Under the pieces are notes generated by a model. It ran no database searches, was not told the origin of the DNA, and saw only the letters and a list, made by a program, of their open reading frames with translations. A stretch of DNA of 64,000 bases from Schmidtea polychroa (taxonomy: Eukaryota), in assembly GCA_044892525.1 (NCBI GenBank), contig CM097886.1, positions 43,524,001 to 43,588,000 on the forward strand. Direction: 5' to 3'. The position numbers and the translations under genes were made by a program. Shown here one piece after another: positions 6,421 to 32,630 of this stretch; within the stretch, counting starts at the first letter, position 1, and each line of letters opens with the position of its first letter.

Positions 6421-7942
6421 TTTTAGTACTAAAATTCAATAAAAATTAATATTTTATTTTAAGTAAAAGCTGGTTTTTAAAAATATTTAATAAATAATTC
6501 GATTTTAATTAACGTATCAAAATAATTAGTTGAAAATAAAATTTAATTATAATTTTAAAATTTAGCAATGATGTCGATTATTTAAACTAAGAAAGTGATT
6601 GAACAATTCTAAAACAATTCAAAATTTCAGCTTTCGAATGTATCAAATTTATTTGTTTTGGTGACCTTGCTAATTTTTAAAGGTTAACTGAGATTGACAA
6701 AATTCCAGAAATTTTATATTATTATTAAAATGAAAATTTTGGTTATCTTGTTTTTTATTTTTTTCTGTTACAGTCAATGGACAAATTTGTTTCACATACC
6801 ATGAACATTACGAGAATCAACTACTTAACCAAACAAAATGATATAGTTGGTATGATAATGTTAATATTTCATTGGTCCGAATTTCGGCTTTCATATTTCT
6901 GGGTTCGGGTAGGTTAAAAATTGTTTAGTAGCCCTGAACTGTATAATTTAATTAATCTCAATAATACCCATCAGTAATTGATGTTAGTACTGTACCAACG
7001 GGTTTAGAAGTTATACAAAGGGCGAGTAGCGTTCCCATAGCTGATGAGCTTAATATTCCAGTGGATTTAATGATTAGGTAAAGTATCGTCCCCAAATAGT
7101 TAATATTAATTAAATCCATAAAGAAATTTTATCAAAAATAATGCTTTCGATTTTTGAAATTGCAAGCGATATAATGAGAAAAATAGCATTTTTAACAGAC
7201 AACAACATCTTCAATACTTCGTTACTCCACAAATAAAGTATGAGATAGGTTAAGCAAAATTTGACCCGAGAGGTATTTTGTTGCACAACCTAAAAATTAC
7301 GTAAGGGAATAACAGTTCGGCATGGAACAATTTCTTTCGAGAAAAACAAACTTGAATACAGAAAAATCCTCATGATGGCATATCTTTGGCTTCATAAAAC
7401 CATTGTTAAAGCAATTAGGCAAACAAGTTAAAATTTCAAAATTAATAATATTTCACTTTGCAATTACGGCAGCTTGTTTAAAAGGATTTTGATGTCAATG
7501 ACTCTTGTATCTGATGGAAGTAAATCACCAGAATCTGAAAATAGATTTTCCAAAAATGAAAAATTTAATTTTTATAAATATTACAAGATAGTCATAAGCC
7601 AATAAATAAAAATTACGAAAGATAAAATTAATCACTTTCATTTAAAATTGGGATAACGAAAAACATCACGAATCGATTTCACGACAATTCACAGAAAAAC
7701 AATTCATAGAAAAAAATATTTACTCGATTCAACTAGTTTTATTTTTTTTTTTGGTTTTCATACTAGCCATTTCGGGTTTTATATTATTAATTAGTTATAA
7801 AAAAAGATTAAAATTTTACCGAAATTAGAAATTAAGATATTAAAATTTTAATGAAAATAATTATAGACAAAGTATAAAGTATTTATTGTAGACATCAAAT
7901 TTTGCATTTAATTTCATTGACTTCCGACCAAATGCAGCTCGG

Positions 7943-9176
7943 TGTTGTGGTTGGCGTAGTCCTTTCTGGTAATTTGGCAATAGTTGACCCACTTTTCAAT
8001 TGATCATCTATTTTGTCTATTTCAATTAATATTTTACCTTGTTCGACTTCAAATTTTAAGTTACAGGTTTGCAAAAGATCTGATTTGTTCTTGAATAAAT
8101 TAGACATTGCATTGAAGAAATTTTGTTCGATTTTCTCTAAAACATTTCCAATATAATTCATTATAGAATCGGAATCCGTGAGTGACGTAAAATTTCTTCC
8201 ATCGAATTCGACTTTAATTTTTTTACATAATTGATCTACTATAATTCGGCAATTATGACCATTTATTAATAATGCAGCAAAATGCAAGTTATCATTTCCA
8301 AAGTTCTCTACATTGAAAGATTTTAGAGAATCCATGCATTCGAATGAATCTTTGGAATAACAATAAGAATTTTTAGCTAGCGAAAAACAACCCAATTGAG
8401 GTTTTTGCATATCGTTTATTTTACTCATAAAAATATTCTGATGAATAAGTCAAATTGCAGGTAAAGATATTTTTAATTTTAATTACAAGGTTTTTAATTT
8501 GAATTACAAAAATTTACAGATCTGAGTAAAACAAAAATATATATAATAGAAACTACATAAAAAATGTAAATATAATCAGACCAGGTAAACATATTCAACA
8601 GGCATTTCTCATTTACAAAATGTTAACTAAAAATAATAATTTCATGTAGTCCGATTATTTCTAAAGATTTTACAACCTGCCGATTTGTCCATGAACCAAT
8701 TTGACCATTGTCATTCGCATACAATATTTGAGGAAATGTATATCCTTTGCCGTTCTGATCCTTTTTTGCATAATCACATTGATCAGAATTTGTAAAGACG
8801 TGTGGTGGTTTGATAAAAAGATCTATTCGGGTTCATATTATTGTTAGGATTTGTTACGTATTTCGCGAATTGTAATGGATGAGGGTGTTGGTCTATGAGA
8901 GCCAACACTAAAACTATTGGGAGCCGAATACAGTTTATCTTGATAATGATAACATGGCATCGAATTTGCTTTACTCGCCTGAGATTGATTAATAGAGCCT
9001 GATTGATAAGTAGAAGTATTAGCTGATCGCACGAATTTTGATTGACTGTAATTGTGTTCTGCTTGGTCCTTATTCGCTGGTGACCGCGCATTTATAGATA
9101 TAATATAATATAATATAATATAATATAGTATAATGGGTATATAGATATTGTTAAGGCCGTGTAACGGCTCACTACA
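7943..9176 (-). repeat. Element A 3' LTR
   Basis: Same length as 15295-16528; I found only three substitutions by eye. Preceded on the - strand by a short purine-rich GTGGGGCTGA (weak PPT, 9177-9186). Confidence 0.95.
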
Positions 9177-9345
9177 TCAGCCCCACGGGAAGTCGCGGAG
9201 CGCACAGGGACTCTAGAATAGAGGTTGATGAAAGATCTACCAGAAACAAGATGTAAGTCGAAGAGTAGTGACAATTTATCAAAGGTGGATAGTGTCTACA
9301 AAGGAAATCGGCGATTGATAAATTATTTGATTATATGGAATAAAG

Positions 9346-12300
9346 TTAAGTGAATTTCAGCATCAGATGTGTCAAGTTTTCATTGGAATAGACTCTGGCA
9401 AGTCTAGGAGGTTTGGAAATGTCTTCACCAATTTGGCGCACCCAAATCTTATCACTATGTTTCACATTTTTCGCGGTTCGCTGCTTGTCGGGTTTCGAAA
9501 CAATTGAGCGAAGATTTAGTGGATTTGTTGTTGCTGAACGTGTATTCTCTGTAGCTAAATTTTCATCGCGTTGGTAGTTTGTGATCATGGTACGCGCGAT
9601 TTCGTTTGAGTCCATGGCAGGTTCTTCTGAAAGGTTTTCGTTCGACGTAGTTGAAATGGGTTCGACTGAGACTTTCTCTAAATCAGAGTGAAGTTTGTCT
9701 TCGTCCACGTCATCAGAAATCATAAAAGCCGGTTTAAGTCGGCACAAATTTATATTTTGGGTAACACCGTTAATAACGATGTGAGCATTGTTATCCTTAA
9801 TGTCGATCAATTTGTAAGGCCCCGAATATCTCGGTTTTAGACCTGAATCCGTAATATTACGGAGATAAACGTGAGTTGCGTCCTTGAAGGACTTTGGGAC
9901 GTACGGTGTATATGAGGATGCATAAGAAAACTGTGGGTTGCTATCGATCGAGAGAAAATGATCTCTAGCCATATCTAATTCCTCAAAGGTAGGAGCGTTA
10001 TCGAAATCAACTAATTCGTTAGGTAACGATGTTGAAGAACCGAAAAGTAACTGTGCCGGTGTAGTTCCGGTAGTCCTGGAGGGTGTGTTGCGCCAACCAA
10101 GAAGGACAAAAGGTAAAGCTTTAGTCCAATTAAGTCTCGATGAAAGTATTCCAAGAGAAGTCTTCAAAGTACGGTGAAATCTTTTGATCATGCCGTTTGT
10201 CTGAGGATGGTAAGCAGTTGAACGGAGGTGTTGTATACCGAGCTTTTCAGTTAGTTGTTGAAATAACTGGGATTCAAACTGAGATCCCCTGTCTGTGATT
10301 ATTGATTTCGGAACACCGTATCTAGAAATCCAATGTTGCAAAATTGAATTTGCTACAATTTCAGCAGAAATGTTTTTCAGAGGAATAACTTCAAACCAAC
10401 GCGTTTTCCGGTCAATCATGGTTAATAAGTAAGAAAAACCGCGATCAGAAGGCAAGGGGCCGACCAGGTCGATGTGAAGAATTTCGAACCTATTTCCTGT
10501 CGGATAGTGAATCATCTGTGGCTTAGTGTGTCTAGTGATCTTGTTTTGTTGACAACCGATGCACTGACTCACCCACAATTTAATATCGTGCCTCATTGCT
10601 GGCCAAACCACATGTGAATGCAATAGGTTGAAGGTAGCCGACGAACCTGGATGATGTAAGTCGTGAATGGAGTGGAAAGCTAATTTCCGTAAGGAATCGT
10701 GCAAAATCGGTCTTAAAACACCTGATAAAGACGAGTCAAAGTGTACTCCGTCCACGATTTCAAGCTTATCGCCAAAAGCAGCTAGATCTTTTGCCGAAGG
10801 TGGATTGTCGCGGAGGCACTGTACTGGAAAAATCGGATCGTGCAATATAGCGTTGGTACTGCGGGAAAGACAGTCTGCAATAACGTTTTCTTTGCCGGCA
10901 ATGTGGCGTATTTCGCAAGAAAATTCTGAAATATAACTGATTTGCCTCTGTTGTCGTGGAGATGGGTCTTTCATTCCAAAAAGATAAGTTAGCGGTTTGT
11001 GGTCAGTGTAGATGACAAAAGGACGACCTTCAAGCAAGTGCTTGAAATGTTTGATTGACAGATATATGCCTAAGAGTTCTCGGTCGAAAGCCGAATATTT
11101 CCGTTGTGCGGAAGAAAGTTTCTTTGAGAAAAACTCTAAGGGTTCAGAAATGTCATTATGTAATTGGTGTAATACTGCACCAATAGCAACGTTTGATGCA
11201 TCAGTGGTCAGACTCCAAGGTAAATCAGCATTGGGAAAATGAAGTGTTTGAATTTTCGAAAGTGCCGACTTAGCGTTTTCAAATGCACTGAGTGTGGTAT
11301 CGCTCCATGACACTAAAGACTTTTTTGGTTTTGAAACAAGACCTGAAAGAGGTGACAAAATGTCAGAAACCCCTGGAATAAAACGATGACAATAGTTTAT
11401 CGTTCCCAAAAAACTTCTCAGTTGTGAAACTGTTTTTGGAAGTGGGAATTTGGCTATGGTATCTAGTCTATCCGGAGGAGGTCGGATTCCATCTGCAGAA
11501 ATTAAATGTCCCAGGAAACGAGTCTCGTGTTGGAAGAAGGTACACTTATCGACGTTTACCTTAAGGTTGTATTGCCGAAGTGCTGTTAAAGTTCTTGTCA
11601 GATGGGTTATATGCGTCTCTAAATCAGGTGATCCGACTAAAATGTCGTCTATGTAAGGAACTGCGAAAGGCAGGTCCATTAAGACTTGATCAATATACCT
11701 TTGAAAGGTCTGTGCAGAATTACGAAGGCCAAATGGCATATGCACGTACTCGAAAAGTCCGATCGGAGTTATCACGGCTGTTTTTTCTATGTCAGACTCT
11801 CGCACGGGTATCTGATGGTACGCCTTCACGAGGTCGATTGTGGAGAAAATCTTTGCCTTTGAAAGACGGTGAAGGATATCACTAACAAGCGGCATGCTAT
11901 AGGAATCATGTACCGTAATAGCATTAAGGTTTCGATAGTCGCCACACGGACGGAAAGTGCCATCTTTTTTTGGGACCAGGTGCAATGGCGATGACCATGG
12001 AGATTTAGATCTCCGAATGGTACCCTCATGTAAGAGGTTAGTGAACTCGGAACGTACAAATTCGAGTTTTTCATTCGACAGTGGTCTAATTTTGCATCTA
12101 ACTGGTAAACATGAAGTTGTGTCGATCGTGTGGCAGTAAAGCGGCTTCGAAACGTCACTTATTGGCGAGTTAAAACACCTATTAATAATATCTAAGGCTA
12201 TTTTTGGGTGTTCGATTGTTATAACCGTTTTCGACGGAGTAGTATTTATATCGTCCGTTCCTATCCGTTGTGGATCTTCAAAGATGTTTGAGGGAATAGT

Positions 12301-12711
12301 GCTGCAGTTTAATTGGTTATTTATTCTTAAAGTGCGTCCACGGCAATCTACGAGTAGTTCGTTAGCGCTTAAAAAATCAGATCCTAATATGGGGATAATA
12401 ACCTCTGCTATATAAAATTTCCACTCAAATAATTGGTCGGACAGAAATGGCAACGAGAAAGCAATTGTCTTTGAACCTAAAGTCTCAACAACACTACCGT
12501 TTGCGGCCTTCAAAGAAATATCGACAGTGTTGAGGTCTGGAAGGTACTCTTTAGGTAAGATCGACAAGCTGGAGCCAGTGTCGACAAGGAATTTTAGTCT
12601 GTTGGAAGGAGACGACAATATATTAAAAGCGTTTGACTCTGCTTCTATTAAAAATAAATCTGATTTTGATGAAATTTTGCCTCCCACCTCTGCCGCTAGA
12701 AGTGGTGGCAT
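9346..12711 (-). CDS. pol: Element A Pol (protease, RT, RNase H, integrase)
   Basis: FLVDTGSS (protease), YIDD (RT), [13 protein letters not shown] (RNase H), HHPG...CIGC (integrase zinc finger), HIDLVGP and ITDRGSQF, and a GPY motif. The frame is open back to the slippery site at 12723. The third integrase catalytic residue reads K instead of E. Confidence 0.96.
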
Positions 12712-12723
12712 TATAAGTTTTTT
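12686..12723 (-). promoter_or_regulatory. Putative -1 ribosomal frameshift signal (gag-pol)
   Basis: A AAA AAC heptamer in the gag frame (12723-12717); pol is in the -1 frame. A 7-nt spacer is followed by the stem CCACTTCT/AGAGGTGG, extended by GCC/GGC, which runs a few bases past the listed start. Confidence 0.75.
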
Positions 12724-14386
12724 TGATTGTTTGCTTTAGGTTTTGTGTAATTGGAGCAGCCTTCGAAGCATTTTAAGGCTTTATCTCCAAACCTGTCGTG
12801 GTATATACACTTGTCAAGTATCTGACAGGATGGTGCTTTGTCTCGCCAATTGCAACCTAGATGGCAGAACCGTGCCTTGTTACGAAACTTAAAATGGAAA
12901 CGGCACAGGTTCCTGGTTGCAGGGGAAGGTGAACGTTGACGAGTATTTTGCACAAAGTGTGATTTTTGGGCATATTGCCTGTCGTCCTTTGTCCGCCTGG
13001 TGGACATGCTATTCTCAAGCTCGCTGATGGGTTTAGTGAGGCCTGTAATAGCGCAAAGTAAGGCTTCTTCGGTCGAAGGTTTCAAAGAAGAAGAAGAAGG
13101 TAAAATTTCGGGGTTAGTGCTGCTACTTAACTGCACAGAGCAAGTTGGTTGCGGACCAAGTGGCACGACTTCGTTAATCTTGTCGGCCATCTTTGCTAGC
13201 TCTACCACGTCTGCTGTTGACGAAAGCGCTAAAATTTGTTGTGCGTGTGGCGGTAAAGCGGACAGAAAAAATTGCCTCAAGAGTTTTTGATCCGCCGCAG
13301 CCTCCGGATGTATTTGCGTTAGTTCTGCCATAGCGTGTTGCAAGAACTGTGACGGTTTTCTGCTGCCCAAAGTTTGCGTCTTAAAGTATTTAGTGAAGAC
13401 GGCAGCTGTAGGTTCCTTAAAAATATCGAGGATTGCCGTACGCAATTCTTCATATGGGTTTTTACGCTAGTAGGCGAAGTACGAAGGATCACGGACGAAA
13501 GTTTACTTAATATCGTCGGCGGAATCAACGGCAATATGCGACAGTATTTGTCTCGTGAACTGGTTACCTCGATTCCCTCGAGTGCTAGTTCGGTAGCTAT
13601 CAGCCAAGTAAGTGGAGAGTTATTCTCATCCAAAAAATATTGACATAAGTACGTTGATCGCTGGTTTTTAGACCTACGTTTATGTTTTGCCTGTTTGGGG
13701 TTGCTGCCTGAGTCATTCTCCGAATCGGAGGAACCGCCAAAAAGTGGCAACAAACAATGAATGACGCTGTATGGTGTCACTCCATAGTCGCCCAAGGTAC
13801 GACTGTCGGAAAGGATGTTGCCGTTATACGACAAGAGAAAACGGCATTTGTGATTAGTCAATATGCTGTAATTTTTAGAAAGACCTCTAATTGTAGTGTC
13901 TGTGTCAACTGAAACGGTTTGTGTCTTATTTGTTCCAGGGTTTTCTAGTAATATTTGGAACTTTTTGGGCCCCGGTGCGGCGCTACCCTCTCGTGTGGGC
14001 TGATGCTTATTTAAATAATTTATTATAATTTTATATATGATATCAATAATAATATAAATCAATAATAATATAGTATAATTTAATAATAATATAATATAAT
14101 TTAGAGGTAATCGATCTAAGGTACCTGGCGGTGCTGACACGGGCATTGCTTGATTGAGTCTCGATTCGCTGGGAGACGGTTTATTATCGTGAATAAATGG
14201 CTGTCCCGGTGCACGAGAGTTTAATGTGAAAAAATCATTATTCTGTTGCATTAAGAATTCATTTGGATTTGGTCGAAGCATGATGCGTTGTGGGGCTGTG
14301 TATAAGACATCACTCGTTAGCAATTTGTTATTTGGTACATAATTATCGATCGGAGTCATTTTTTTACGATTTTCAACGGCAATCAT
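12711..14386 (-). CDS. gag: Element A extended Gag (hydrophobic segment + ubiquitin-like domain + Gag), split by a 1-nt deletion near 13460
   Basis: ORF 13319-14395 carries the Gag N-terminus (PLTWL..TELAL....V...RDKY..IL..IP) and ORF 12711-13445 the remainder ([29 protein letters not shown], two C-x2-H...C...C motifs). One extra A in GTAAAAACCC restores [13 protein letters not shown]. Confidence 0.85.
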
Positions 14387-15780
14387 CTCAGCCAATGCTT
14401 GCCGGAAACATTAATCGAATCAAAATCTATATCGGCTGTATCTTTATATTTCTGATCGTAATGTGAATTCGGTTTCTCCGAGCCAAATATGCGATTTATA
14501 TCCATTTCGTTTCGATCCTGATACTGACCGTAGTTAAGCACACCGTTGTTGTTTGCCTGTTGATTGATGTTGTGATGGTATGACTGATTATTATTGTTGT
14601 TATTCTTGATTGCGGCGTGGTTTTGAGAATTTAACTGGCAGAAACTTTCCAGCAGAGAATTCGACGAACCAACTGAATTCAAACTGTTCATAAATGATTT
14701 ATGATCTGAAAGCCGTGACAGGGGAGATGTGGAATTCAGTGTACTGTGGAATTCAGTAATATCATTACCAGCTGAGCTATTGAAAGCACTGAATAGGGGA
14801 AATTCGGATTTAGTATCCGATGATTCAGATTGTAATTGAATACTTTTACTGATAAATTTGAAAGACGATTTATTTATCGGGTCAGAAATTTGAAATTGAC
14901 CATTTGGAATATGATTATTATCTGTGATATTTGCAGGGGTCGAAATGGAATCACATAGAACGACTACGGGATCCAAAAAATCACGATCTGGAATTGTCTG
15001 AATTAATTTGATATACTCTTCTCGATTCGATGACAAACAACAGGAATGAGCAATTATCAAATGATCTATCAGCCTATCAATATCATGGGATATAGGATTA
15101 AATTTTGATGAAAGTTTTAATTCGGAAAATATTTTGGAAAGCATATGGAACATATTTTGACATATTTCCGCTGTTCGTTTATGAGAAACTAACATAGATT
15201 GTTTTTCCTGTAATCTGGATTTAGCAATGATATTAGATAAATAAGTTTCTAATTGTTCAAATCTTGAACATTGTTCTGGCACTTCTGACACCAATGTTGT
15301 GGTTGGCGTAGTCCTTTCTGGTAATTTGGCAATAGTTGACCCACTTTTCAATTGATCATCTATTTTGTCTATTTCAATTAATATTTTACCTTGTTCGACT
15401 TCAAATTTTAAGTTACAGGTTTGCAAAAGATCTGATTTGTTCTTGAATAAATTAGACATTGCATTGAAGAAATTTTGTTCGATTTTCTCTAAAACATTTC
15501 CAATATAATTTATTATAGAATCGGAATCCGTGAGTGACGTAAAATTTCTTCCATCGAATTCGACTTTAATTTTTTTACATAATTGATCTACTATAATTCG
15601 GCAATTATGACCATTTATTAATAATGCAGCAAAATGCAAGTTATCATTTCCAAAGTTCTCTACATTGAAAGATTTTAGAGAATCCATGCATTCGAATGAA
15701 TCTTTGGAATAACAATAAGAATTTTTAGCTAGCGAAAAACAACCCAATTGAGGTTTTTGCATATCGTTTATTTTACTCAT
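14383..15780 (-). CDS. Element A ORF0, 465 aa, unknown function, starts within the 5' LTR
   Basis: Uninterrupted ATG-initiated ORF crossing the LTR end and the PBS, with a Ser-rich and N/Q-rich C-terminal part. No family recognised. Confidence 0.75.
   Translation of the reverse strand: MSKINDMQKPQLGCFSLAKNSYCYSKDSFECMDSLKSFNVENFGNDNLHFAALLINGHNCRIIVDQLCKKIKVEFDGRNFTSLTDSDSIINYIGNVLEKIEQNFFNAMSNLFKNKSDLLQTCNLKFEVEQGKILIEIDKIDDQLKSGSTIAKLPERTTPTTTLVSEVPEQCSRFEQLETYLSNIIAKSRLQEKQSMLVSHKRTAEICQNMFHMLSKIFSELKLSSKFNPISHDIDRLIDHLIIAHSCCLSSNREEYIKLIQTIPDRDFLDPVVVLCDSISTPANITDNNHIPNGQFQISDPINKSSFKFISKSIQLQSESSDTKSEFPLFSAFNSSAGNDITEFHSTLNSTSPLSRLSDHKSFMNSLNSVGSSNSLLESFCQLNSQNHAAIKNNNNNNQSYHHNINQQANNNGVLNYGQYQDRNEMDINRIFGSEKPNSHYDQKYKDTADIDFDSINVSGKHWLR
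15280..15293 (-). promoter_or_regulatory. Element A primer-binding site (tRNA-Leu type)
   Basis: TGGTGTCAGAAGTG 1 nt after the 5' LTR end, complementary to the CACTTCTGACACCA 3' end of tRNA-Leu. Confidence 0.88.
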
Positions 15781-20875: not shown

Positions 20876-21470
20876 TGTTGGGGTTCAGTAGGAACCGGAA
20901 TTAAAGGTTTTGAAATTAAATAATAATTAATTACTAAAATTAGGATTAAAATATAAATAGTATTTAAAATTACTAAAAGTGGAATTAAAATATAAATAGT
21001 AAAAAATAATTACTAAAAATAAATTCGTAACAAAAATAGTAATTTTTTAAAAAATATATAATAAAAATAGAAATTAAATAATTACTATTAATAGATTTAC
21101 AATAAATAAATTTATATAAATATCAGCAAAATTATATTGATGAGGGGAGAAAATCGAGAGAAAAAAAGATCACAGATCAGAAGAATTTAAAATTAGATCG
21201 GGAAACAATTTCTAATTGGACGAATTTCTGTTTTAGTATTCATTTTATTGATCGGAAAAAAAAGGGAATTTAAGAATCTCTTGGAAATTTATTATCACGT
21301 CAACTTGTAACTTAGCTCCAATATTCTTTGGAGTAATTTAGAAGAGATCAAAAGAGGAAAATTGTTAGGACTTATTTCGACAACCCATCTGTGGTTTTGG
21401 TTATCTACAGGGAGGAATTTAAATAAGGAAAAAATTTTAAATTAGTTAGTTTTTATTGTTCATATCTAAG

Positions 21471-21556
<86 letters not shown>

Positions 21557-21980
21557 TTCGGTCAAATAAAACTAATTTTAACAAGGGAAGCAGTAACGTC
21601 AGCACGTATCTTTTTGTGTTGTTTCGTTACGAATATTATTTGAAAAAGGGTTAACCGATTTCTGGGTTGACTCTATCGCGTTAAAATTAGGTAAACTCCC
21701 TTATCTTTTTTCCGCTCACCTATATCGGGCTGTTGGCGCATTTAAGGCCAGCCTTGATTCTTAGTAATACTCTTTAGGGCGGTTTGTATAACCGTTTCCT
21801 GTTCTTTAGAAAGCAGCGTGATTAATCGTGTAATATAAATAATTGTGTACCAAATTATTTATTGTTAATAAATATTTAAATCATATTCGTTATTTTATTT
21901 ACCTACACGCATTATAAATTATTTGGAGTCAGGTAAAACGTTTTTGTGTTAGTTCGAATACATACCCATCGAACCTAACA
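20876..21980 (+). repeat. Element B 5' LTR (1105 bp, includes a long TA microsatellite)
   Basis: TGTT...AACA termini, imperfect terminal inverted repeat, direct repeat of 35051-35997. Confidence 0.93.
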
Positions 21981-21983
21981 TTT

Positions 21984-22001
21984 TGATGAGCCCGACGTGA
22001 T
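21984..22001 (+). promoter_or_regulatory. Element B primer-binding site (tRNA-Trp type)
   Basis: TGATGAGCCCGACGTGAT, two mismatches from the TGGTGACCCCGACGTGAT complement of the vertebrate tRNA-Trp 3' end, located 3 nt after the LTR. Confidence 0.82.
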
Positions 22002-22079
22002 AAAATTATCAGCGGGTAGAAATTGAAATAAAACAAAATAGCGTTAGGAACTAGAGCCAGAGTAAAACTGGATAGTCAA

Positions 22080-24644
22080 ATGGCAGAGGAAGCTAATGTA
22101 AATGCATTTGCCAGATATCCCGCTCTGCCCGTAAAGGCATTCAGCGGTGATCCGGGAGAATTCTCAGAGTTTATGTCTGAATATTATCAGATGGCCAAAG
22201 CATATGCTTATCCAGATAATATCATGATACAAAGGCTACCTATATATTTGAAGGGGCTGGCAAGAGAAAAATATAATGACATTATGGCATTACCAGTTGC
22301 TCAAGCACCGAAAACATGGGCCGAAATGAGAGAAGCAATGACTGCTCGAATATTGCCCGGAGATGCGGGAAGAATATTTAGACAACAATTTTATCACCGA
22401 AAACAGAATGCCAATGAACATGCGGGGGAATTGGCACACCAGCTATCATTAATTGCTGAAAGAGCATTTGGACCAAAAACCACATGGGCAAAGCCAACAG
22501 AATTGTTAGTTAAGGATCAGCTATGGGCAGGACTTACGCTTACAACGAGGAACGCTCTAATATTACATACTAGTGATGATTTCGACGAATTGACACGGAA
22601 AGCTGTCGTAATTGAAAGCAGCTTGAAAAAGTCAACCATGTTCCTTGTAAACAGTGAGAGAACACCAGTAGAGTGTTTCAATTGCCATAGAAAAGGGCAT
22701 ATAGCGAAAGATTGTACCAGCAGGAAAATTATGGACAATCGCAAAAGTATACAATGTACCAAATGTGGACGGAATAACCACGGTGCGGAAAATTGTAGAG
22801 TGCAGAATTTGCAATGTGAAAAATGCAAACGAAAGGGACACGTTGCTGCAGTCTGTAAGACTAGAAGCTCTCAGAACAGCAATAATTTTGGTACGGTTAA
22901 AAGAGATGATGTAAATTCATCAGGAAAGATAAAATGTCACGGATGTGGGAAATTCGGACATATGATGAGGTCATGTCCTCAGAACCAGAGTGGAAACACG
23001 AGTCAGTTCAATAAAAATACCGATAAGGGTAATGTGAACAAGCCTAAGACAACTTTTATGGTTAACCAGGATCAAGGATTAACTTATCTGCAACAACTGG
23101 AAATGGAAATCCAGGAGGAAAAGAATAGGTTGGCTAGATTGACCGACCAAGAAGGCACCATCTTCATGGTAGAAGTTGGAAGAGATGAATTTCTCAGAAA
23201 AAAGGACTCCGTTAGAGAGGACCTTCAGGAAACGGAATCAGAGGAGAGTTCCGATGATGAACCTAGTATGGCCACCATACTAAGCGAGTTCGATGTAACC
23301 TTGCCAGGGAAAGCAAAGGTAAAAGAAGGGTCAGATACCCTAACAAAATGTTTAAAACTGGTGGATACCAGATATGAGTATCAGCAGAAGCTGGCCAGAC
23401 AATTGAAAAAATTGGGAGAAACAGAGATTAAAATTCACGAAATCGATACAGTAGTAAAACTGATATCGCAGGTCGAAGATGATCCCAAGTATAATAATGA
23501 CACGTACAAAATCCTAAGGAAATTAGGAAAACTCATGGAACATGAGTGGGATCTCCAAGATGCCCAGCTCAATATAAAACTCCCACAGGATAAAGAGTAT
23601 AATCTCGATATAAATGTAAGAAGTCGAGCCGATAAATTAACGGAAACATTGACAAGTATTAAGCATCAAGAATATGACTTATACTTATGTGGAACAAAAC
23701 TAGAAGCAAATCAAACACTTCTACAGAACGGGATACTCCCAGGTAGAGTGACGAAGCTCACAGCAAAGAGAGCACAGAAGCCAGTGGCAGTAATGGATCA
23801 AGATAGTGTATTCTTGATTACTCAGATGGAAATAGAGAGATTGGAGGAAACTCAACAATTAATCCAGCGACTAAGGTTGGAATTGCAGAAATCTCCACGA
23901 GATGGAGAAACTATAAAGGAAATACTTGACTGGATGTTAGTATTACGAATACCAGCAGATTTGTTGGAAGCAATAATTCCACTTATACTACCAGTGGTAA
24001 AGGAAACAAGCCCATTCCAGACGCAAATCGAGGCACTGATGAGGAAAAATGTGAAAGCTATTCGAAGTCAGCCTGATAGACAAGGCAACATTAATCTAGA
24101 CGTGCGAATGATGGGAAAAGAACCATTAACAATGATTTATAATTGTTATATCAAGGTTAAAATATTGAGGAGAGATGTGATTGCCACCGATCAAACTACA
24201 GGTATATTCCTGATAATGATCCACGGTAGGCAAGTGGATGATGATGAATATCTAGTGGATGTGGGTTGTCTACCGTTGGCGATAACCACGGTAATGATCA
24301 TCCCAGTAACTCCACCCGAGTCCCAGTGGTCATTAATGAGACTGCCAGATATAGCAAACGAAATTGCGGAAGAGATCGATGAAATAAGACTAGAGGAAAT
24401 TAATCCCTGTCAAATGGTGGACATTGACGAGGAAGATTACTTCTCAGAGTACGTCAGATTAAATCCAGGAGAAACAAACGTAGGAGCTACTACGTCACAA
24501 GCTATAACAAATCCGGAGACTGAAAAACCCCCGGAGAAAGTGAAGAAAGATGGACTAGGACGTCCTAGAAAGGATCAAATGAAACCTCCACCCAAGGAGC
24601 AGTTAAATCCAGAAACTATTCGGAAAATTCAGCTAAAACATTAG
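22080..24644 (+). CDS. gag: Element B Gag, 854 aa, with four CCHC zinc knuckles and a C-terminal extension
   Basis: Retrotransposon capsid-like N-terminus (FSGDPGEFSEF...LPIYLKGLAREKY, F..RKQ..NE) and knuckles CFNCHRKGHIAKDC, CTKCGRNNHGAENC, CEKCKRKGHVAAVC and CHGCGKFGHMMRSC. Confidence 0.93.
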   Translation: MAEEANVNAFARYPALPVKAFSGDPGEFSEFMSEYYQMAKAYAYPDNIMIQRLPIYLKGLAREKYNDIMALPVAQAPKTWAEMREAMTARILPGDAGRIFRQQFYHRKQNANEHAGELAHQLSLIAERAFGPKTTWAKPTELLVKDQLWAGLTLTTRNALILHTSDDFDELTRKAVVIESSLKKSTMFLVNSERTPVECFNCHRKGHIAKDCTSRKIMDNRKSIQCTKCGRNNHGAENCRVQNLQCEKCKRKGHVAAVCKTRSSQNSNNFGTVKRDDVNSSGKIKCHGCGKFGHMMRSCPQNQSGNTSQFNKNTDKGNVNKPKTTFMVNQDQGLTYLQQLEMEIQEEKNRLARLTDQEGTIFMVEVGRDEFLRKKDSVREDLQETESEESSDDEPSMATILSEFDVTLPGKAKVKEGSDTLTKCLKLVDTRYEYQQKLARQLKKLGETEIKIHEIDTVVKLISQVEDDPKYNNDTYKILRKLGKLMEHEWDLQDAQLNIKLPQDKEYNLDINVRSRADKLTETLTSIKHQEYDLYLCGTKLEANQTLLQNGILPGRVTKLTAKRAQKPVAVMDQDSVFLITQMEIERLEETQQLIQRLRLELQKSPRDGETIKEILDWMLVLRIPADLLEAIIPLILPVVKETSPFQTQIEALMRKNVKAIRSQPDRQGNINLDVRMMGKEPLTMIYNCYIKVKILRRDVIATDQTTGIFLIMIHGRQVDDDEYLVDVGCLPLAITTVMIIPVTPPESQWSLMRLPDIANEIAEEIDEIRLEEINPCQMVDIDEEDYFSEYVRLNPGETNVGATTSQAITNPETEKPPEKVKKDGLGRPRKDQMKPPPKEQLNPETIRKIQLKH

Positions 24645-24898
24645 CCAGGATAGCCCAAGAAATGGACGACCAGGCGGGAGATGAGACAACGCCAGAAGTC
24701 GTTATTGTGGCAACGTATACAACAAATGATCGGGATTATCAGGCCCGAATGGAGAATTCCAAAAATCAAGGGTATCGAAGTAAAGAAAATGACGAAAGAG
24801 GTCAAGAAGACAATGGATAGAGTATCCAAAGATGTATCAACAGGAGATATTCAGGATGCCATAGAAGCATTCGTACAGCAAGGATTAACAAGAGGAAA

Positions 24899-27800
24899 GT
24901 GGTAACATCGCTATCATTGTTAATTCAAAATGCCTTAACCCGAGTAGGGGACGATAAAAGGCTTATAGAACGAGAAATCGATCAAATAGTCGAAATGGTA
25001 GATTATTACCTGGAGGTATGGATGACCGTAAACAAATTTTGGGAAAAGGAAATGATCCCAAAACCACGATACGAAGTCGTGGAAGAAGCCATAGATAATG
25101 GTAGTTCAGGCACAGGAAACATGACAAGCATGATCCTGATGTTCCTAGTAATGATGGGCATATTAAAACAAACAAATTCATTAACAGTATTTGACTGTGG
25201 AAATCCTAAACTATCTCGGATATATTCGCTAGTAGATGCAATTGAGTGCAAAGAGGCGTATCCAGAGAAGGTTCATCAAGGGGAAAAGGTAGAATATTAC
25301 GTCTACCAAGAGAGTGAATTTTATAGAACTACGATAAAGGAATGTAGAATTCAGAGAGCTACATTTGAATATTATTGCGGTAGTAATAGCTATTCTGCTT
25401 TTCTATCTGCAACATTAATACCAAGGCCGGTAAACATAATGCCCGAAGATTGCTTAGATGCATTTCGAAAAGGAAGTGTGAGGATAGACAACGAGGTATC
25501 AATCTCAGCAGAAATTGGGAAAACATTGGGAATAACAATCACTCGCGGAGGAACAATTGCCTCAGATGGAACCTGCGAAGGTAGAAAGAAAATTCGCGGT
25601 AGCAATTTAGTTTCCTATGTGGTAAACATAGAAGATTACTCAGTGGAATTACGAGAATACGAGGGAACATTCGATGTGGCCACAGGAAAATTGATGGCAC
25701 ATCCGCAATGCAACGCCAAGTTCGGTAGTTATAAAACGGGAACCACTACATTAATTTACGAACAAATGAGAGATCATTGTGAGTTGGCTTTCCTCAAGAA
25801 AATTCCTTTTAGAAAATTAAATGGAACTAAATATCGGGACTCCCAGAATCCAGAAAAGGTTTGGGATAAAGCAAAAACGTTGAAGAAAATCAACAAACAA
25901 GAGAAGGAAGATATCGGAGAGGAAAACACACCTCTAGTGTTGATATCGGAAGACAAGACGGAAGCAATTCGATTTGTCCGAAAAGATAAAAAGACTAAAT
26001 GTGGAAAAAGAGTATACGAGACGAACTACAAAGGAATCTTCCTGTCAAGAGAATATATTCGAAATTCCAAGGTCTTACACGTAAAGGATATCAAAATCAC
26101 GAATTATATAAATAATAAAGTAGATTATTTATATCACGACCTGCAAGGACAAATGCAGGATCTGTATCAAGAGGTGATACTAAACGATTGCAAGCTAAAT
26201 AGTGAAATAGTCCGAAATAGATTAGCAATATCTATCGTTAACCCAGAGTTGGTTACTCCAATGTTATTGGAAGACAGAATGTTTGGCAGAATCATGGGAG
26301 AAGCTATATATAGCTATGAGTGTAAACCAGTGGAAGTACAATTAGCCAGATTTAATCAATGCACTCTAGAACTGCCAGTGTCTTACCAAGGAAAATTGAG
26401 ATTTGTTATGCCAGTAACCAGAAAGTTACTTGAGGAAAACGCTAAACCTCAACCAGCTATATGCAACCCGGCAATATCACCATTATACAAAATAAATGAC
26501 ATGTGGATATCTCTGCCGGAAAGAAAACCATCTACACAACGGGTAGAGACCTTGGAGGTAACTAAATTAAAGGATAATCTGGAATTCAAGTCATTAGACG
26601 AATTAGCAAAAGGAGGGATTTATACTCCCGACAATATCGAGGAAGCAAGAAGGACATTGCTATTCCCACAAATCAGAGATAGAGGTATCACGGAAATTAT
26701 AAGAACAATTTATCATGATAGCTTAATACGACCAGATTACAATCTATTATTTGGACCGGAACACTATAAAGAAGCAGCAAAGAACGTAATGATGAAAATA
26801 TGGGGACGATTTACCAATTTTGGTATTTTCGTCGCTGGATGTTCAGGAATATACGCAATATTTGTAATTCTAAAGCTGATAATTACACAACTGATGTCAA
26901 CATATAGCATATTCAAAATTGGGGGATGGTCAAGGAAACTGCTATTAGGACTATGTCCTATGTGTGCAGAGTTTGCATTATTCAAACATCACAGAAAAGA
27001 AATTAAAGAAATTAGACAGAAACATTTGGTCAAACATGAAGTAATTGGAACAGAAATGGAGGAGTATTCGAGTTATCGGGACGATAACAATTCAAAGGGA
27101 GGAGGTAAGGGAGGCTCTCGTGAAACATCTTCAAGATCAAATCAATCACGAAAACAGAACTACAACAAAAAACCGACCCAGCAACAAAGAAAATCGAGAT
27201 TTAAGGAATATCTTCCTCCATATGACCAATCAAAGGAAATCTACGTGAGAAAACAGTCCTCAGAAGGAGAATATGACAGTTCCGACCAGAAATTCGACAT
27301 AAGGTCACCCAGATTCAAGAGAAGTCCAAGATATGTACAATTGCCAACTTTGAGGAGTTTACCATCCGCACCAAACGATGGGCGGGAACATTCAAGGGAA
27401 ACAACACTCAGAACAGGACGACACCAATGGAAAATCGGTGAAGATACCATATTTAATAATCTGACATGTTCAACATTGCCAGAATTACCTAAAGTGCACT
27501 ATCCAAATGAAGCGTTAGAGTCAATTAAAGCTAAATTTAAAGAGCATAATCCTCAACTGAGTGATCCTGAATTACTGGAAGCAGAACAAACGAGAGCCAA
27601 TACAATCGGTATCTCGCACGATACTATCTTGATGGTCAATAACCCAGTGAACTTGGATAAAAAGCCAATGATAAAAATAAGAGTGAACCGACATAAAGTT
27701 AATGCGGTGATAGACTCAGGAGCAGATGGTACCATAATTGAAGCTAAATTGTTAAACCATCATGAACTGCAGTCGCTAAAACCGGTAGGAGTAAAATTAA

Positions 27801-28465
27801 CAGGAGCAAACGGATCCTCATTAAACGTAATAGGGTCATTATCATGTCAGATTAAGCTATGTGACCAAGAGCTCCATCACGACATCATAGTGATGAGAAG
27901 TCTCCCAGCCGAATGTCTATTGGGTATGGACATCCTAAAAAGACTACGAGGAGTAATATTCGATTGTGCATCTGGATTGTTAATCCGAGCACGAGGTAAA
28001 AAGAGAAAAATTTACAACGATGATACAGCTTATATAGATCATACAACTATCATATCACCCAGAGCAGAAACGGTATGCTTTGTAGCTACAAGCAATAATT
28101 GGGAAGGTGAAGTTGTATTCGAACCAGACGAAAAATGTTCGGAGAAATACAACATACCAGTTACTCATAGCGTAGGTTTAATAGTCAATGGCAGAATACC
28201 AATCAGGGTAGCCAATCTGGACATTAAACCACTTTACTTATATCCAGATACCAGAGTGGGCAGAATCTGGAAACAAAACGAGCCACAAGCCACGGGAGAA
28301 GGGTCGATACTCACCGTAAAGGCAGAAGAAAGAGATCCAGATATTGAGTACTACGATGCACCTACAGCAAATAGCAAAGTGCTAACCAGAAAGGAAAACA
28401 TTCAAGTAAATATGCTATTGAGGAAATACGACCAGGTATTCGCCAAACATACCAGTTACTCATAG
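24899..28465 (+). CDS. env: Element B glycoprotein-protease fusion ORF (1188 aa): chuvirus/gB-like envelope followed by aspartic protease
   Basis: Internal signal peptide at 25121 (MTSMILMFLVMMGILKQTNS), Cys-rich ectodomain, TM at ~26810-26900, then in the same frame VIDSGADG (Asp at 27713). The ORF is cut off by a tandem duplication. Confidence 0.85.
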   Translation: MVTSLSLLIQNALTRVGDDKRLIEREIDQIVEMVDYYLEVWMTVNKFWEKEMIPKPRYEVVEEAIDNGSSGTGNMTSMILMFLVMMGILKQTNSLTVFDCGNPKLSRIYSLVDAIECKEAYPEKVHQGEKVEYYVYQESEFYRTTIKECRIQRATFEYYCGSNSYSAFLSATLIPRPVNIMPEDCLDAFRKGSVRIDNEVSISAEIGKTLGITITRGGTIASDGTCEGRKKIRGSNLVSYVVNIEDYSVELREYEGTFDVATGKLMAHPQCNAKFGSYKTGTTTLIYEQMRDHCELAFLKKIPFRKLNGTKYRDSQNPEKVWDKAKTLKKINKQEKEDIGEENTPLVLISEDKTEAIRFVRKDKKTKCGKRVYETNYKGIFLSREYIRNSKVLHVKDIKITNYINNKVDYLYHDLQGQMQDLYQEVILNDCKLNSEIVRNRLAISIVNPELVTPMLLEDRMFGRIMGEAIYSYECKPVEVQLARFNQCTLELPVSYQGKLRFVMPVTRKLLEENAKPQPAICNPAISPLYKINDMWISLPERKPSTQRVETLEVTKLKDNLEFKSLDELAKGGIYTPDNIEEARRTLLFPQIRDRGITEIIRTIYHDSLIRPDYNLLFGPEHYKEAAKNVMMKIWGRFTNFGIFVAGCSGIYAIFVILKLIITQLMSTYSIFKIGGWSRKLLLGLCPMCAEFALFKHHRKEIKEIRQKHLVKHEVIGTEMEEYSSYRDDNNSKGGGKGGSRETSSRSNQSRKQNYNKKPTQQQRKSRFKEYLPPYDQSKEIYVRKQSSEGEYDSSDQKFDIRSPRFKRSPRYVQLPTLRSLPSAPNDGREHSRETTLRTGRHQWKIGEDTIFNNLTCSTLPELPKVHYPNEALESIKAKFKEHNPQLSDPELLEAEQTRANTIGISHDTILMVNNPVNLDKKPMIKIRVNRHKVNAVIDSGADGTIIEAKLLNHHELQSLKPVGVKLTGANGSSLNVIGSLSCQIKLCDQELHHDIIVMRSLPAECLLGMDILKRLRGVIFDCASGLLIRARGKKRKIYNDDTAYIDHTTIISPRAETVCFVATSNNWEGEVVFEPDEKCSEKYNIPVTHSVGLIVNGRIPIRVANLDIKPLYLYPDTRVGRIWKQNEPQATGEGSILTVKAEERDPDIEYYDAPTANSKVLTRKENIQVNMLLRKYDQVFAKHTSYS

Positions 28466-28745
28466 CGTAGGTTTAATAGTCAATGGCAGAATACCAATCA
28501 GGGTAGCCAATCTGGACATTAAACCACTTTACTTATATCCAGATACCAGAGTGGGCAGAATCTGGAAACAAAACGAGCCACAAGCCACGGGAGAAGGGTC
28601 GATACTCACCGTAAAGGCAGAAGAAAGAGATCCAGATATTGAGTACTACGATGCACCTACAGCAAATAGCAAAGTGCTAACCAGAAAGGAAAACATTCAA
28701 GTAAATATGCTATTGAGGAAATACGACCAGGTATTCGCCAAACAT
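28151..28745 (+). repeat. 295-bp tandem duplication in pol
   Basis: 28151-28445 is repeated at 28446-28740, with AACAT microhomology at the junctions. The length is not a multiple of 3, so it shifts the frame. Confidence 0.93.
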
Positions 28746-30191
28746 GAATACGATCTGGGAAAAACAAACCTGTTAGAACATGAGATTGTCCTCACCAATA
28801 CAAAACCTATAAAGTTGAGACCATACCGTATTCCATTCAGTCTGGAGGAATCAGTAGATAAACAGGTGAAATTGATGTTAAAACATGGCATAATCAGGCA
28901 TAGTAAATCACCATATCAATCACCAATGATAACTGGTGGCCAAGAAGGATGGATCAGTACGATTATGTAACGACTATCGCATGGTTAACGAAGCAACATG
29001 CAAAGATAGCCATCCATTGCCAATGTTAGATTATATCTGTGGGCGCATGAGAAACGCTAGGTTCTTCTAAGTAATGGACGCCCAAAAGGGATTTTATCAA
29101 ATTAAGTTAAAAGATGAGACTATACCAATAACAGCGTTCTCTACGAGTATGGGTCATTACGAATATAACGTAATGCCATTTGGACTCACAGGAGCTCCAG
29201 CCACTTTTCAAAGAGCAATGAATTTGATGCTCATGGATGTACATCATGCGATGGTATACATTGACGACGTCATAGTATTCTCGCCAAATTTGGAAAAGCA
29301 CTTGGAACATTTAGAAGATGTATTCAAGAGGTTGATCAACGCAAACATGAAAGTGAAACCAACCAAATGTAAATGGGCTGAACCAGAAGTGGTATATGTT
29401 GGCCATATCATATCACGAGACGGGGTTAAACCCGATCCAGCTAATGTTGAAAAGGTAAAGAATTTCCCGGAGCCTAAAACCGTTAAACATATCAAAGGGT
29501 TTTTAGGCCTAGTCGGATACTATAGAAAGTTCATTAGAAACTTCTCGGTTATAGCTTTTCCACTCACGCAGTTAGAAGGCAAAAACGTCAAATTTGTGTG
29601 GGGAACAGAACAGCAGGAAGCATTTGATATGCTCAAGGAAAAGCTCGTCAAGCCACCTATATTGCGATTTCCAGACTTTGAGAGACAATTTTTGGTTATG
29701 ACAGATGCCAGCACTCGGGGCATAGGTGCTGTGCTAGGTCAAAGAGATGACCTAGGAGATGAGTATGCAATTGCATACGCTAGCAGAGGATTAAAACCAC
29801 ACGAGAGAAACTACGCAGTGATAGAACTAGAGGCTTTAGCAATTGTGTATGCTATAACCCAGTTTAGGACTTATCTATGGGGTCGGAAGATCATAGTGTA
29901 CACCGATCATAGACCATTACAGTGGCTGACAAAACACACAATGGATACCTCAAAACTAGTCAGATGGGCATTAATCTTACAGCCATATGACATAGAAATC
30001 CATTAGAGAAAAGGAGATCATAATGGTAATGCAGATGCTTTATCAAGAATGGACCAGGAGGAGGAAGCAGAAGATGTGAAGGAAGGACGTCTCGAAGGGA
30101 CTATCTTCACATTGACCCGAGAAGCCAACCGGCTAGCTGATTTAATGGAGGCACAAAAATCTGACGAAGAAATCAATATTATCCGTCAACC
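28551..30191 (+). pseudogene. pol: Element B RT-RNase H, disrupted
   Basis: RPYRIP, SPY.SPMI(LV.KKDGS.RLC.DYR), MPFGL, YIDD, MTDAS..GIGAVL, YTDHRPL. Lesions: extra A at ~28931, TAA at 29068, TAG at 30004, 1-nt deletion at ~30190. Confidence 0.93.
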
Positions 30192-32432
30192 TTGGAAGTG
30201 AATTACGTGCCCACAGAATTCACAAAATACTGGGAAAAGAATAAAGACAAATTTGTGCTGGAAGAGGGATTAGTTAAATATTCAGATGTAAGAGATAATG
30301 TTATAATGGTTCCTAAGAAATACCGTGAAGCACTCATGTTGCAGTATCACGATGGAGCCTTAGAAGGCCACCTGTCATCTAGAAAAACATTGTCGAGGCT
30401 AAAACAGAAATATTTTTGGCCAGGTATGAAACAAGACGTTAAAACCTGGTGTCAGACGTGTAAGATCTGTATCACCAGAAGAAATACCAGAAAGAAACCA
30501 CACGTACCAATGAAGCCGATGCCAGTACCATCTACACCTATGGAAATGACGGCAATGGACGTGTTGGGGCCATTCAAAGAATTTAATAGCGGAAACAAGT
30601 ATATATTAGTGTTCTGCGACTATTTGACTAAGTGGCCAGAAGCCTACCCGATGCCTAATCACAAAGCTGATACGATAGCTAGAATTTTCATTGAACAAAT
30701 TGTCTTTAGGTATGGAGTACCTACAAAGTTATTAACGGATCGGGGAGCAGATTTCATGAGTAATTTGCTCAAAGGAATAAATGACTATTTCGGAGTTTTA
30801 AAGTTGAATACTTCCCCATATCACCCACAGACGGATGGGCTAGTAGAACGATTTAATGGAACATTAGCTAATATGTTAGCATCATATGTAAATTCAGGGC
30901 AAACGGACTGGGACATCCACATTCCATCCTGTTTATTTGCATACAGAAATGCAGTGCACGAAGGAACAGGTGAAACACCATTTTACCTAATGTATCTGAG
31001 GCAAAGTAAAATGCCAGTAGACCTGTTGTTTTTCCCTAAAGCAACACAGTATTTAGATCAGGAAAATTATTTGATGGAAATGAGGGAAAGAATGCAGGAA
31101 GCATGGGCTAGAGCAGGCCTCAGTATAAAATATAATCAGGAGGTATCCAAAGATTATCATGACCGAAAAGCCAAGGATCATGGCATAATGGTTGGAGACC
31201 AGGTGATGTTGGAAAGTCATTATAACAAGAAAGGCTTATCACCAAAACTCATGCGAAATTTCAAAGGGCCATATGAGGTATTGAGAACCACAGATACAAA
31301 TCTCATATTACAACTTGTAGCCAACAGAAAAGCAGAACCAATAATGGTGCATGCTAATCGGTGTAAAAAGTGCGAAATCTCAACAAAAGGAACCTCTGGA
31401 AATTCAAAAGTAAAAGCACCAGAGAAACAAGTGAAACCAAACACTACCGAAGAACCACAAGAACACCGATACCCATTGAAATCACGGGGTGTTCCAAAAT
31501 CGGTAACCTTTTTGTTGATAATAAGCTGTATGATGACTTTTGCGATGGCAAAAAGGGATAAAAAGGCATATTTTCAGCCTATGGCTATGCAAGTGGAACA
31601 CTTACATTTCATAAGAACGTATCACGGAATAAGCATACTCACAACGTGCGATAATGCTACAAAATTCAATTTACATTTCTACAACAAGTACTTGCGGATC
31701 CGCCAACTCAATTCAGAAGAAAAAGAGTGGGAATTATATGATTTAAAAGCTGAGACGGATTATAAACTGCATATCGCAGCATCAAGGTTATATCAGAGTG
31801 GTTGGTATACCTATCACGTATCAAATTGGATCCTACGGACGGCGGATTTCACAAATCGCATATCGATATCCTACGAAAGGGATAATGTAAAGTTTAGTCA
31901 GCAAATTAGCAGGGAGGAAAAGGTGAAAGTCTGTATTCTAGACGGACCAACCACGAGAGAAATATTATGGTTAGACCAGAACTCTCCCTCCCAAGAAATG
32001 TATCTAAATCAGTCCGTAGAATATTCGGTTCTAGTTATATATTATAGTCCGAGGAAACGGCAGGACGATAAGTGGTTCGAGGTATTCGAGAAAATATTAC
32101 CTCTGAAACAGCCAGTTATATCGAAAATACCACCAAAAGTAGTCAGGGAGAACATGGTGATACATCCCGCGATGTGGCAACATCTTAGACAATTGCCACC
32201 TATCAAACAAATATCTTGCCAAACTACCCCAAACCTGACAAACTGTTGTGATTGTAATGCCATCACAAACTTTAATGCAGGATATATTCTGAAAATACCC
32301 ATAGGGGTATGGATTACGGTATCGGCCGTACTATCGCTAATAATTACACTGATAGCTATGGGTATTTGGACCAAGCTATATTTCAGACAAGCCATAAGGG
32401 CTTACGATGGAGTACTGATGTCGCAATTATGA
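30192..32432 (+). CDS. pol: Element B integrase fused to a C-terminal type I membrane protein module
   Basis: H..GH...C..C zinc finger, MDVLGP, LTDRGADF, GLVERFN and GPY motifs; then a signal-like VTFLLIISCMMTFAMA (31503), an ectodomain and a TM (IPIGVWITVSAVLSLIITLIAMGIW). Confidence 0.88.
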   Translation: MEVNYVPTEFTKYWEKNKDKFVLEEGLVKYSDVRDNVIMVPKKYREALMLQYHDGALEGHLSSRKTLSRLKQKYFWPGMKQDVKTWCQTCKICITRRNTRKKPHVPMKPMPVPSTPMEMTAMDVLGPFKEFNSGNKYILVFCDYLTKWPEAYPMPNHKADTIARIFIEQIVFRYGVPTKLLTDRGADFMSNLLKGINDYFGVLKLNTSPYHPQTDGLVERFNGTLANMLASYVNSGQTDWDIHIPSCLFAYRNAVHEGTGETPFYLMYLRQSKMPVDLLFFPKATQYLDQENYLMEMRERMQEAWARAGLSIKYNQEVSKDYHDRKAKDHGIMVGDQVMLESHYNKKGLSPKLMRNFKGPYEVLRTTDTNLILQLVANRKAEPIMVHANRCKKCEISTKGTSGNSKVKAPEKQVKPNTTEEPQEHRYPLKSRGVPKSVTFLLIISCMMTFAMAKRDKKAYFQPMAMQVEHLHFIRTYHGISILTTCDNATKFNLHFYNKYLRIRQLNSEEKEWELYDLKAETDYKLHIAASRLYQSGWYTYHVSNWILRTADFTNRISISYERDNVKFSQQISREEKVKVCILDGPTTREILWLDQNSPSQEMYLNQSVEYSVLVIYYSPRKRQDDKWFEVFEKILPLKQPVISKIPPKVVRENMVIHPAMWQHLRQLPPIKQISCQTTPNLTNCCDCNAITNFNAGYILKIPIGVWITVSAVLSLIITLIAMGIWTKLYFRQAIRAYDGVLMSQL

Positions 32433-32630
32433 CAATTACAGACTCCCCCGAGGGAAAAATCATATATAAATATTTATATATATCTTAAAATCTATATTTA
32501 CGTAGAGCTCCAGGTAGCATTAAAATTCAGCATATGTAGATCTTTTATGATAAGACTCATGCATATCTTTTTAGCCTATTATGGCATATCAGTTTATCTG
32601 ATATTATGGTTAATGATTTTTATTTCAGGA

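Follow-up and report, generated by a model that had tools for sequence, protein, structure and literature searches.

A Ty3/gypsy element and its glycoprotein frame

The window analysed here (a stretch of 64,000 nt from contig CM097886.1 of Schmidtea polychroa) contains a Ty3/gypsy element of 15.1 kb (20876–35997, forward strand, as are all of its features given below) that carries a predicted class III fusion glycoprotein between gag and the protease, which is where an earlier note on this DNA had placed such a fusogen. The element begins with a 5′ long terminal repeat (LTR; 20876–21980, TG...CA) preceded by a 4-bp target-site duplication (TSD; CTAA) and ends with a polypurine tract and 3′ LTR (35039–35997, the LTR itself being 35051–35997) followed by CTAA. 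A 4-bp TSD is legible in the window copy and in nine of ten sister copies. The 3′ LTR is shorter than the 5′ LTR: about 95 nt are absent just past its first bases and its TA run is much shorter, unlike the LTR pairs of the sisters, which are nearly co-linear. The primer-binding site (PBS; 21984–22001) is complementary to the 3′ end plus CCA of a tRNA-Trp(CCA) gene of the host genome, at 17 of 18 nt in the window copy and at 18 of 18 in nine of ten sisters. The tRNA-Trp(CCA) that this site matches is also found as a tandem array with a 284-bp unit, from position 55022435 of G000:C4 (L100–L104), with 821 pattern matches in the genome. Gag (22080–22988) comprises a capsid region and CCHC zinc knuckles (Pfam zf-CCHC, E 6e-9), and the Gag of sister L021 has four zf-CCHC stretches and a match to Retrotrans_gag (E 0.004) that is below the cut-off. 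Pol consists of an aspartic protease (27656–27952; PF13975 E 6e-13, PF00077 E 5e-9, DSG motif at 27713), reverse transcriptase (RT) and RNase H (28770–30003, the start being approximate; Pfam RVT_1 and RT_RNaseH; interrupted in the window copy) and the zinc finger and core of an integrase (30309–30827; PF17921 E 2e-20, PF00665 E 2e-8). This Pfam order is that of Ty3/gypsy elements (Metaviridae), as are the TG...CA LTRs, the tRNA PBS, the polypurine tract and the short TSD. The best solved relative of the RT is that of Ty3 (E 2e-58), with weaker matches to a caulimovirus-type enzymatic polyprotein (1e-36) and to retroviral RTs (1e-20 to 1e-21).

The glycoprotein and the aspartic protease together occupy one stop-to-stop frame of 1,214 codons (24821–28465). 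Every motif quoted in the earlier note is present in this single stop-free frame and in the order it gave: the signal-peptide Met (25121), LTVFDC (25181), YCGSNS (25373), GGTIASDGTCEG (25547), YINNKVDYL (26105), GEAIYSYECKPVEV (26297), CTLELPVSY (26360), LAKGGIYT (26603), LLFP (26657), WGRFTNFG (26801) and IDSGA (27710). The Pfam matches in the frame, which put this far beyond chance, are PF24664 (Monjiviricetes_fusion, E 6e-86) and the PF13975 match of the protease. An internal signal-peptide-like segment (25121–25180) has an 11-residue core with a mean hydropathy of 2.97 and a putative cleavage site, and relatives carry the same hydrophobic segment ahead of their glycoproteins. It is followed by the ectodomain (25181–26800, 540 aa), which has 13 cysteines in the window copy and 14 in 17 of 20 sisters, and by a single predicted transmembrane helix (26825–26884), the sole segment exceeding 1.3 in 19-mer hydropathy between the signal peptide and the protease. 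The helix had been thought to run directly into the protease; the two do share a frame, but about 257 codons of basic, low-complexity sequence lie between them, and this predicted cytosolic tail or spacer (26885–27655) has a ratio of replacement to synonymous polymorphism (pN/pS) of 0.12 among sisters.

The ectodomain was folded from a 97-row alignment, giving a model with a mean predicted local distance difference test score (pLDDT) of 91 and a central helix of 48 residues. When this model was compared with the PDB by Foldseek all of the matches listed were herpesvirus gB (best E 9e-15, TM-score 0.42–0.49 at the top ranks), and the best matches in BFVD were chuvirus and related glycoproteins (E 3e-37, TM-score up to 0.76, 15–19% identity). 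Together with PF24664 these model-based matches make a solid case that the glycoprotein is a class III fusion protein of the chuvirus G/herpes gB type, as had been proposed from the motifs.

The window copy itself is damaged. Its glycoprotein–protease frame is cut off at 28465, short of the RT, by a tandem duplication of 295 nt with perfect identity (28151–28740, the two units being 28151–28445 and 28446–28740), which is private to this copy and missing in all 20 of the sister stretches compared. Upstream, the gag frame runs no further than 24644, and that of the glycoprotein begins at 24821. Private indels lie near 24640, 24700, 24890, 28930 and 30190 and there are further stops besides; the first three indels were judged private against 19–20 of the 20 sister stretches, and therefore position 24899, from which the coding unit had previously been drawn, is no natural start of an open reading frame (ORF). 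The two LTRs of the window copy differ at 13 of about 980 aligned positions whereas nine of ten sister pairs differ by 0–4 substitutions (the tenth pair is split), so that this insertion is dead and of greater age, within a family that is still young.

The single Gag-Env-Pol frame and selection on the glycoprotein

A search of the host genome with the glycoprotein yielded 3,052 candidates, 70 of which were scored. All 70 contain the glycoprotein (92–100% identity), which is thus no one-off insertion, and the longest of their open frames has 3,369 codons. For frame and pN/pS counts 20 sister stretches were picked for their long frames: in 7 of the 20 one frame runs from capsid through integrase, and in 11 of the 20 one runs from capsid through the protease or RT motifs. 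The order within the single frame is capsid, zinc knuckles, ubiquitin-like, Bcl-2-like, glycoprotein, protease, RT, RNase H and integrase. The second sample consisted of the 20 best-scoring glycoprotein loci, taken by score rather than by frame length and including the window locus. In 16 of these the frame stays open from the glycoprotein into the protease, and in 15 no stop separates the glycoprotein from the Gag-side region before it; the breaks that do occur fall at scattered places, so that there is no programmed frameshift, and near the glycoprotein the sisters examined have neither a conserved stop or slippery break nor an internal deletion that recurs. As the sisters read through and the indels of the window copy are private to it, the coding unit is Gag-Env-Pol and the apparent Env-Pol frame of the window is its damaged remnant. 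The Env-Pol polyprotein of the earlier note therefore stands as regards the in-frame fusion of Env to Pol, which is conserved in the sisters and in database relatives, but not as regards its extent, Gag being fused too. A second family in the host genome, with 45% identity in the glycoprotein, has frames of 3,334 codons in which the capsid and the start of the glycoprotein are again in one frame.

In the 20 long-frame sisters the ectodomain has a pN/pS of 0.07, compared with 0.07 for capsid, 0.04 for RT and 0.05 for integrase. Variants present in at least two copies comprise 100 synonymous and 12 replacement changes, with about 3.4 replacement sites available per synonymous site. The glycoprotein is under purifying selection. 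The long database relatives number 13 (26–41% identity); in 10 of the 13 a protease follows in the same protein, 4 of these 10 also having RT and integrase, and the remaining three end within or soon past the glycoprotein. A tree (FastTree, midpoint root) has a branch with support 100 that separates 14 internal glycoproteins from 26 stand-alone ones. The fusion of glycoprotein to Pol is old and has been maintained. Some peculiarities of the database proteins may be recorded here. P0004, P0005, P0006, P0007 and P0014 have two or three aspartic-protease motifs past the glycoprotein (one of those in P0006 lies past the integrase), compared with one in the window family. P0008, a glycoprotein-protease-RT-integrase protein of 2,627 aa, has an NCBI entry that calls it hypothetical and assigns it to a Flavobacteriaceae metagenome-assembled genome, and is likely to be misbinned eukaryotic DNA, and P0016, in which Bcl-2-like and glycoprotein pieces are joined to an ion-transport domain, is likely to be a gene-model artefact.

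Accessory modules and neighbouring sequences

Three further modules are predicted between Gag and the glycoprotein, all with approximate limits. The first (23547–23771) is likely to be a ubiquitin-like domain, a weak assignment suggested by a Pfam ubiquitin match (E 5e-5, below the cut-off) at the matching place in the related family L091; pLDDT in this part of the model is <50. The second (24072–24311) is a ubiquitin-like (beta-grasp) domain according to a model made for the sister region (about 80 in pLDDT at this place), whose Foldseek ranks 2–49 are nearly all ubiquitin, ISG15, SUMO or UBX (E 8e-4 to 7e-3, target TM-score up to 0.85). The third (24670–25057), frameshifted in the window copy, is likely to be a Bcl-2-like helical domain by a transitive route: it aligns to the relatives P0005 (E 1e-4) and P0022 (E 0.003), and a Pfam Bcl-2 match lies just ahead of the glycoprotein in five of eight relatives scanned (E 8e-5 to 0.2, all below the cut-off). 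The interval between protease and RT, the place at which a dUTPase-like segment counts as a feature of Burro elements (discussed below), holds a conserved 175-aa segment (pN/pS 0.06) that has homologs in relatives and no Pfam dUTPase match.

Hydropathy predicts a second type I membrane module in frame past the integrase (31491–32432; L071:170-1111 is its equivalent), with a signal-like segment, an ectodomain of about 250 aa and a transmembrane helix at 32301–32357. The ESM Atlas gave FN3 clusters at 0.91 for this ectodomain, which we treat as a lead only, and P0006, P0008 and P0017 have a comparable hydrophobic pair past the integrase. We found no published description of this module, although the figures and full ORFs of PMC13524379 might show it. 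Beyond it lies ORF2 (32631–34702; equivalent to L071:1115-3397), which is broken in the window copy and spans 756–761 codons stop-to-stop in 7 of 10 sisters; in 9 of 10 a tract resembling a splice acceptor lies ahead of its ATG. ORF2 has a homolog in another family (E 1e-19) and a weak likeness to the ISG20L2 exonuclease (E 0.079) and, more generally, to ISG20L2/REX4 exonucleases, so that it may possibly contain an exonuclease-like domain.

Elsewhere in the window an unrelated second Ty3/gypsy element (7943–15594, reverse strand) has a 300-nt LTR block that is 100% identical, a pol frame open for 1,129 codons (9346–12735), an open frame within the LTR and a ubiquitin domain (PF00240, E 6e-9) just ahead of its gag-like region. 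An uninterrupted 578-codon cactin frame (4699–6435, reverse strand; Cactin_mid and CactinC) is either an intronless host gene or a retrocopy.

Proposed polyprotein processing, alternatives and known systems

We think it probable that this is a recently active Ty3/gypsy family which encodes Gag, a class III fusogen and Pol in a single frame and whose polyprotein is processed, in the manner of those of RNA viruses, at the membrane of the endoplasmic reticulum (ER) to give an enveloped particle. The frame, domain order, selection and LTR, PBS and TSD anatomy are as described above and the fold is that of the model; the processing steps we infer. Translation would begin at Gag, in the cytosol, until the internal signal sequence enters the ER and host signal peptidase releases the N-terminus of the ectodomain, the retained signal segment then serving as a membrane anchor for the Gag-ubiquitin-like-Bcl-2-like precursor. 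The single transmembrane helix would bring the chain back to the cytosol, leaving protease, RT, RNase H and integrase on the tail of the fusogen until the element's own protease cuts the cytosolic parts free, and the second signal and transmembrane pair past the integrase would yield an additional small surface protein. The topology predicted by hydropathy is thus cytosol (Gag-ubiquitin-like-Bcl-2-like), signal, lumen (fusogen), transmembrane helix, cytosol (tail, protease, RT, RNase H, integrase), signal, lumen (FN3-like) and transmembrane helix. With Gag and Pol tethered to the membrane of the fusogen, co-packaging at budding would follow and no frameshift would be needed. The signal-peptidase cleavage, the tethering of Pol to the membrane and the infectious particles proposed in the earlier note would all fit the hydropathy. 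That particles leave the cell and infect others is less sure than the topology and processing of the polyprotein.

A number of points weigh against this interpretation. A 1:1:1 ratio of Gag, Env and Pol is unusual among retroelements and other transcripts may matter. In the window copy breaks affect gag, RT, RNase H/integrase and ORF2, and a near-invariant cysteine is absent from the glycoprotein. The pN/pS values come from copies picked for long frames, which may lower the ratios somewhat, though not the contrast. The topology derives from simple hydropathy scales, and on the Gag side of L021 there is a hydrophobic 19-mer (aa 635–653, hydropathy 2.0), which we judged not to span the membrane because it contains prolines and acidic residues. 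Finally, the Bcl-2-like region has no direct match in Pfam or by Foldseek.

A fuller scheme on a flavivirus plan, with four ER crossings, Gag anchored through the Bcl-2-like domain by the retained signal peptide of the envelope, Pol carried on the fusogen tail, the FN3-like protein acting as attachment or trigger partner of the gB-like fusogen and infectious particles made in a planarian-type host, is put forward as tentative and we consider it rather unlikely. Alternatively the glycoprotein may be functional without free infectious particles (for instance by serving in ER budding, in local transfer between cells or in superinfection interference), most insertions occurring within the producing cell. 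This we consider possible, if on the unlikely side: selection on the glycoprotein reveals use and not route, and the long co-divergence of env, pol and host described in the main text of PMC13524379 fits mainly vertical spread, but a full-length class III ectodomain whose conserved cysteines have been kept across 26–45% divergent families is what would be expected of an entry protein. Slightly less probable is that the single frame is real but that spliced or shortened RNAs supply most of the Gag, or an env-less Gag-Pol, the full polyprotein being a minor product. Capsids of Metaviridae and retroviruses require an excess of Gag and the acceptor-like tract ahead of ORF2 suggests that splicing is used; against this, single-ORF gag-pol is common in Ty3/gypsy elements and the neighbourhood of the glycoprotein in the sisters lacks, as noted above, any conserved stop, slippery break or recurrent deletion.

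Separate expression of a Gag ORF and an Env-Pol polyprotein, linked by a programmed frameshift or with Env-Pol using a start of its own, is what the gap between 24644 and 24821 in the window copy would suggest, but the indels there are private, in 15 of the 20 best-scoring loci the frame is continuous from the Gag side and the other breaks are scattered; the read-through sisters refute this arrangement and we regard it as very improbable. More improbable still is a one-off capture of a chuvirus gene carried as a passive passenger in a retrotransposon (an endogenous viral element), for although the nearest viral folds are chuvirus glycoproteins and such captures are reported from arthropods (PMC10084718), it is refuted by the presence of the glycoprotein in all 70 scored copies, a pN/pS of 0.07 and the fused relatives. 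The low identity to the top viral glycoproteins (15–19%) and the split of 14 internal glycoproteins from 26 stand-alone ones with support 100 also speak against it.

The preferred reading, a single Gag-Env-Pol polyprotein, has published precedents, and the novelty implied by the earlier note is overstated, since planarian elements with an env placed between gag and pol in the same frame were already reported in 2019. According to the section on it in Arkhipova & Yushenova (2019; PMC6431247), Burro (GYPSM1) is a giant gypsy-like element of Schmidtea mediterranea and Dugesia with this arrangement. The likeness extends to a single polyprotein, CCHC Gag, ubiquitin-like and Bcl-2-like modules, an env of mononegavirus-fusion type ahead of protease-RT-RNase H-integrase and an accessory ORF (PMC6431247), with the reservation that in the modules before env one ubiquitin-like domain is assigned by fold and the Bcl-2-like one transitively, below the cut-off. 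The window family is smaller (15 kb and 3,369 codons, compared with >30 kb and 4,873–5,140 aa given for Burro in that section), shows no Pfam match to the MATH, BIR and ankyrin modules of Burro and has a post-integrase membrane module that the Burro section of PMC6431247 does not mention; the Burro env is there called gypsy-Env-like by HHpred, whereas that of the window is class III by fold. The window element therefore works like Burro but is not Burro proper.

Closer in its env is the group of GAG-ENV-POL elements with a gB-type ENV reported by Chary & Hayashi (eLife 2026; PMC13524379) from Nematoda, Bryozoa and Platyhelminthes; S. mediterranea accounts for six of these elements. As in the gB-type errantiviruses set out in the main text of that paper, the window family has an HSV/gB-type ectodomain between a signal peptide and a transmembrane helix, the order gag-env-pol and many near-identical copies, and it shares with Smed_errantivirus_1-6 a Ty3/gypsy Pol, an env upstream of pol, a multi-copy state and a similar size class. 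The nearest listed env is that of Smed_errantivirus_4, which by hand count agrees with it at 67 of the first 100 residues listed, and the window env is not identical to any of the six env segments given. The Smed_errantivirus_4 motif pattern has no exact match in the host genome, and the Smed_errantivirus_2 motif occurs there in a different family (11 of 30 loci), which taken alone would make a planarian host likely. In the published list the tRNA type of the Smed elements is 'none' whereas the window family has a tRNA-Trp PBS. The main text of PMC13524379 does not contain the words 'polyprotein', 'in frame', 'fused' or 'frameshift', although its figures and full ORFs could show a single frame. 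On the env segments the family is set apart from the six Smed elements and looks uncatalogued.

The class III fold is shared with chuviruses (Jingchuvirales), other Monjiviricetes glycoproteins (PF24664) and herpesvirus gB, at 15–19% identity to chuvirus and 10–13% to gB, but there the glycoprotein is a stand-alone gene and here it is an internal part of a polyprotein. The mosquito element Anakin (Dezordi et al.; PMC10084718 and PMC13524379) is likewise an LTR element with a PF24664-type glycoprotein; it is, however, BEL/Pao and not Ty3/gypsy, and its glycoprotein in P0069 comes after DUF5641, which places it at the 3′ end of pol. With the layout already in print the present finding adds a family and not a principle, its value being that the Burro design is met here in a young family of compact size (15 kb) and high copy number, with direct evidence of purifying selection on the envelope, a fold assigned to class III, a tRNA-Trp PBS and a second membrane module. 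Should the model with four ER crossings be true, the family would represent an enveloped retroelement in which gag, pol and env are not expressed separately, and would bear on how env joined Ty3/gypsy elements.

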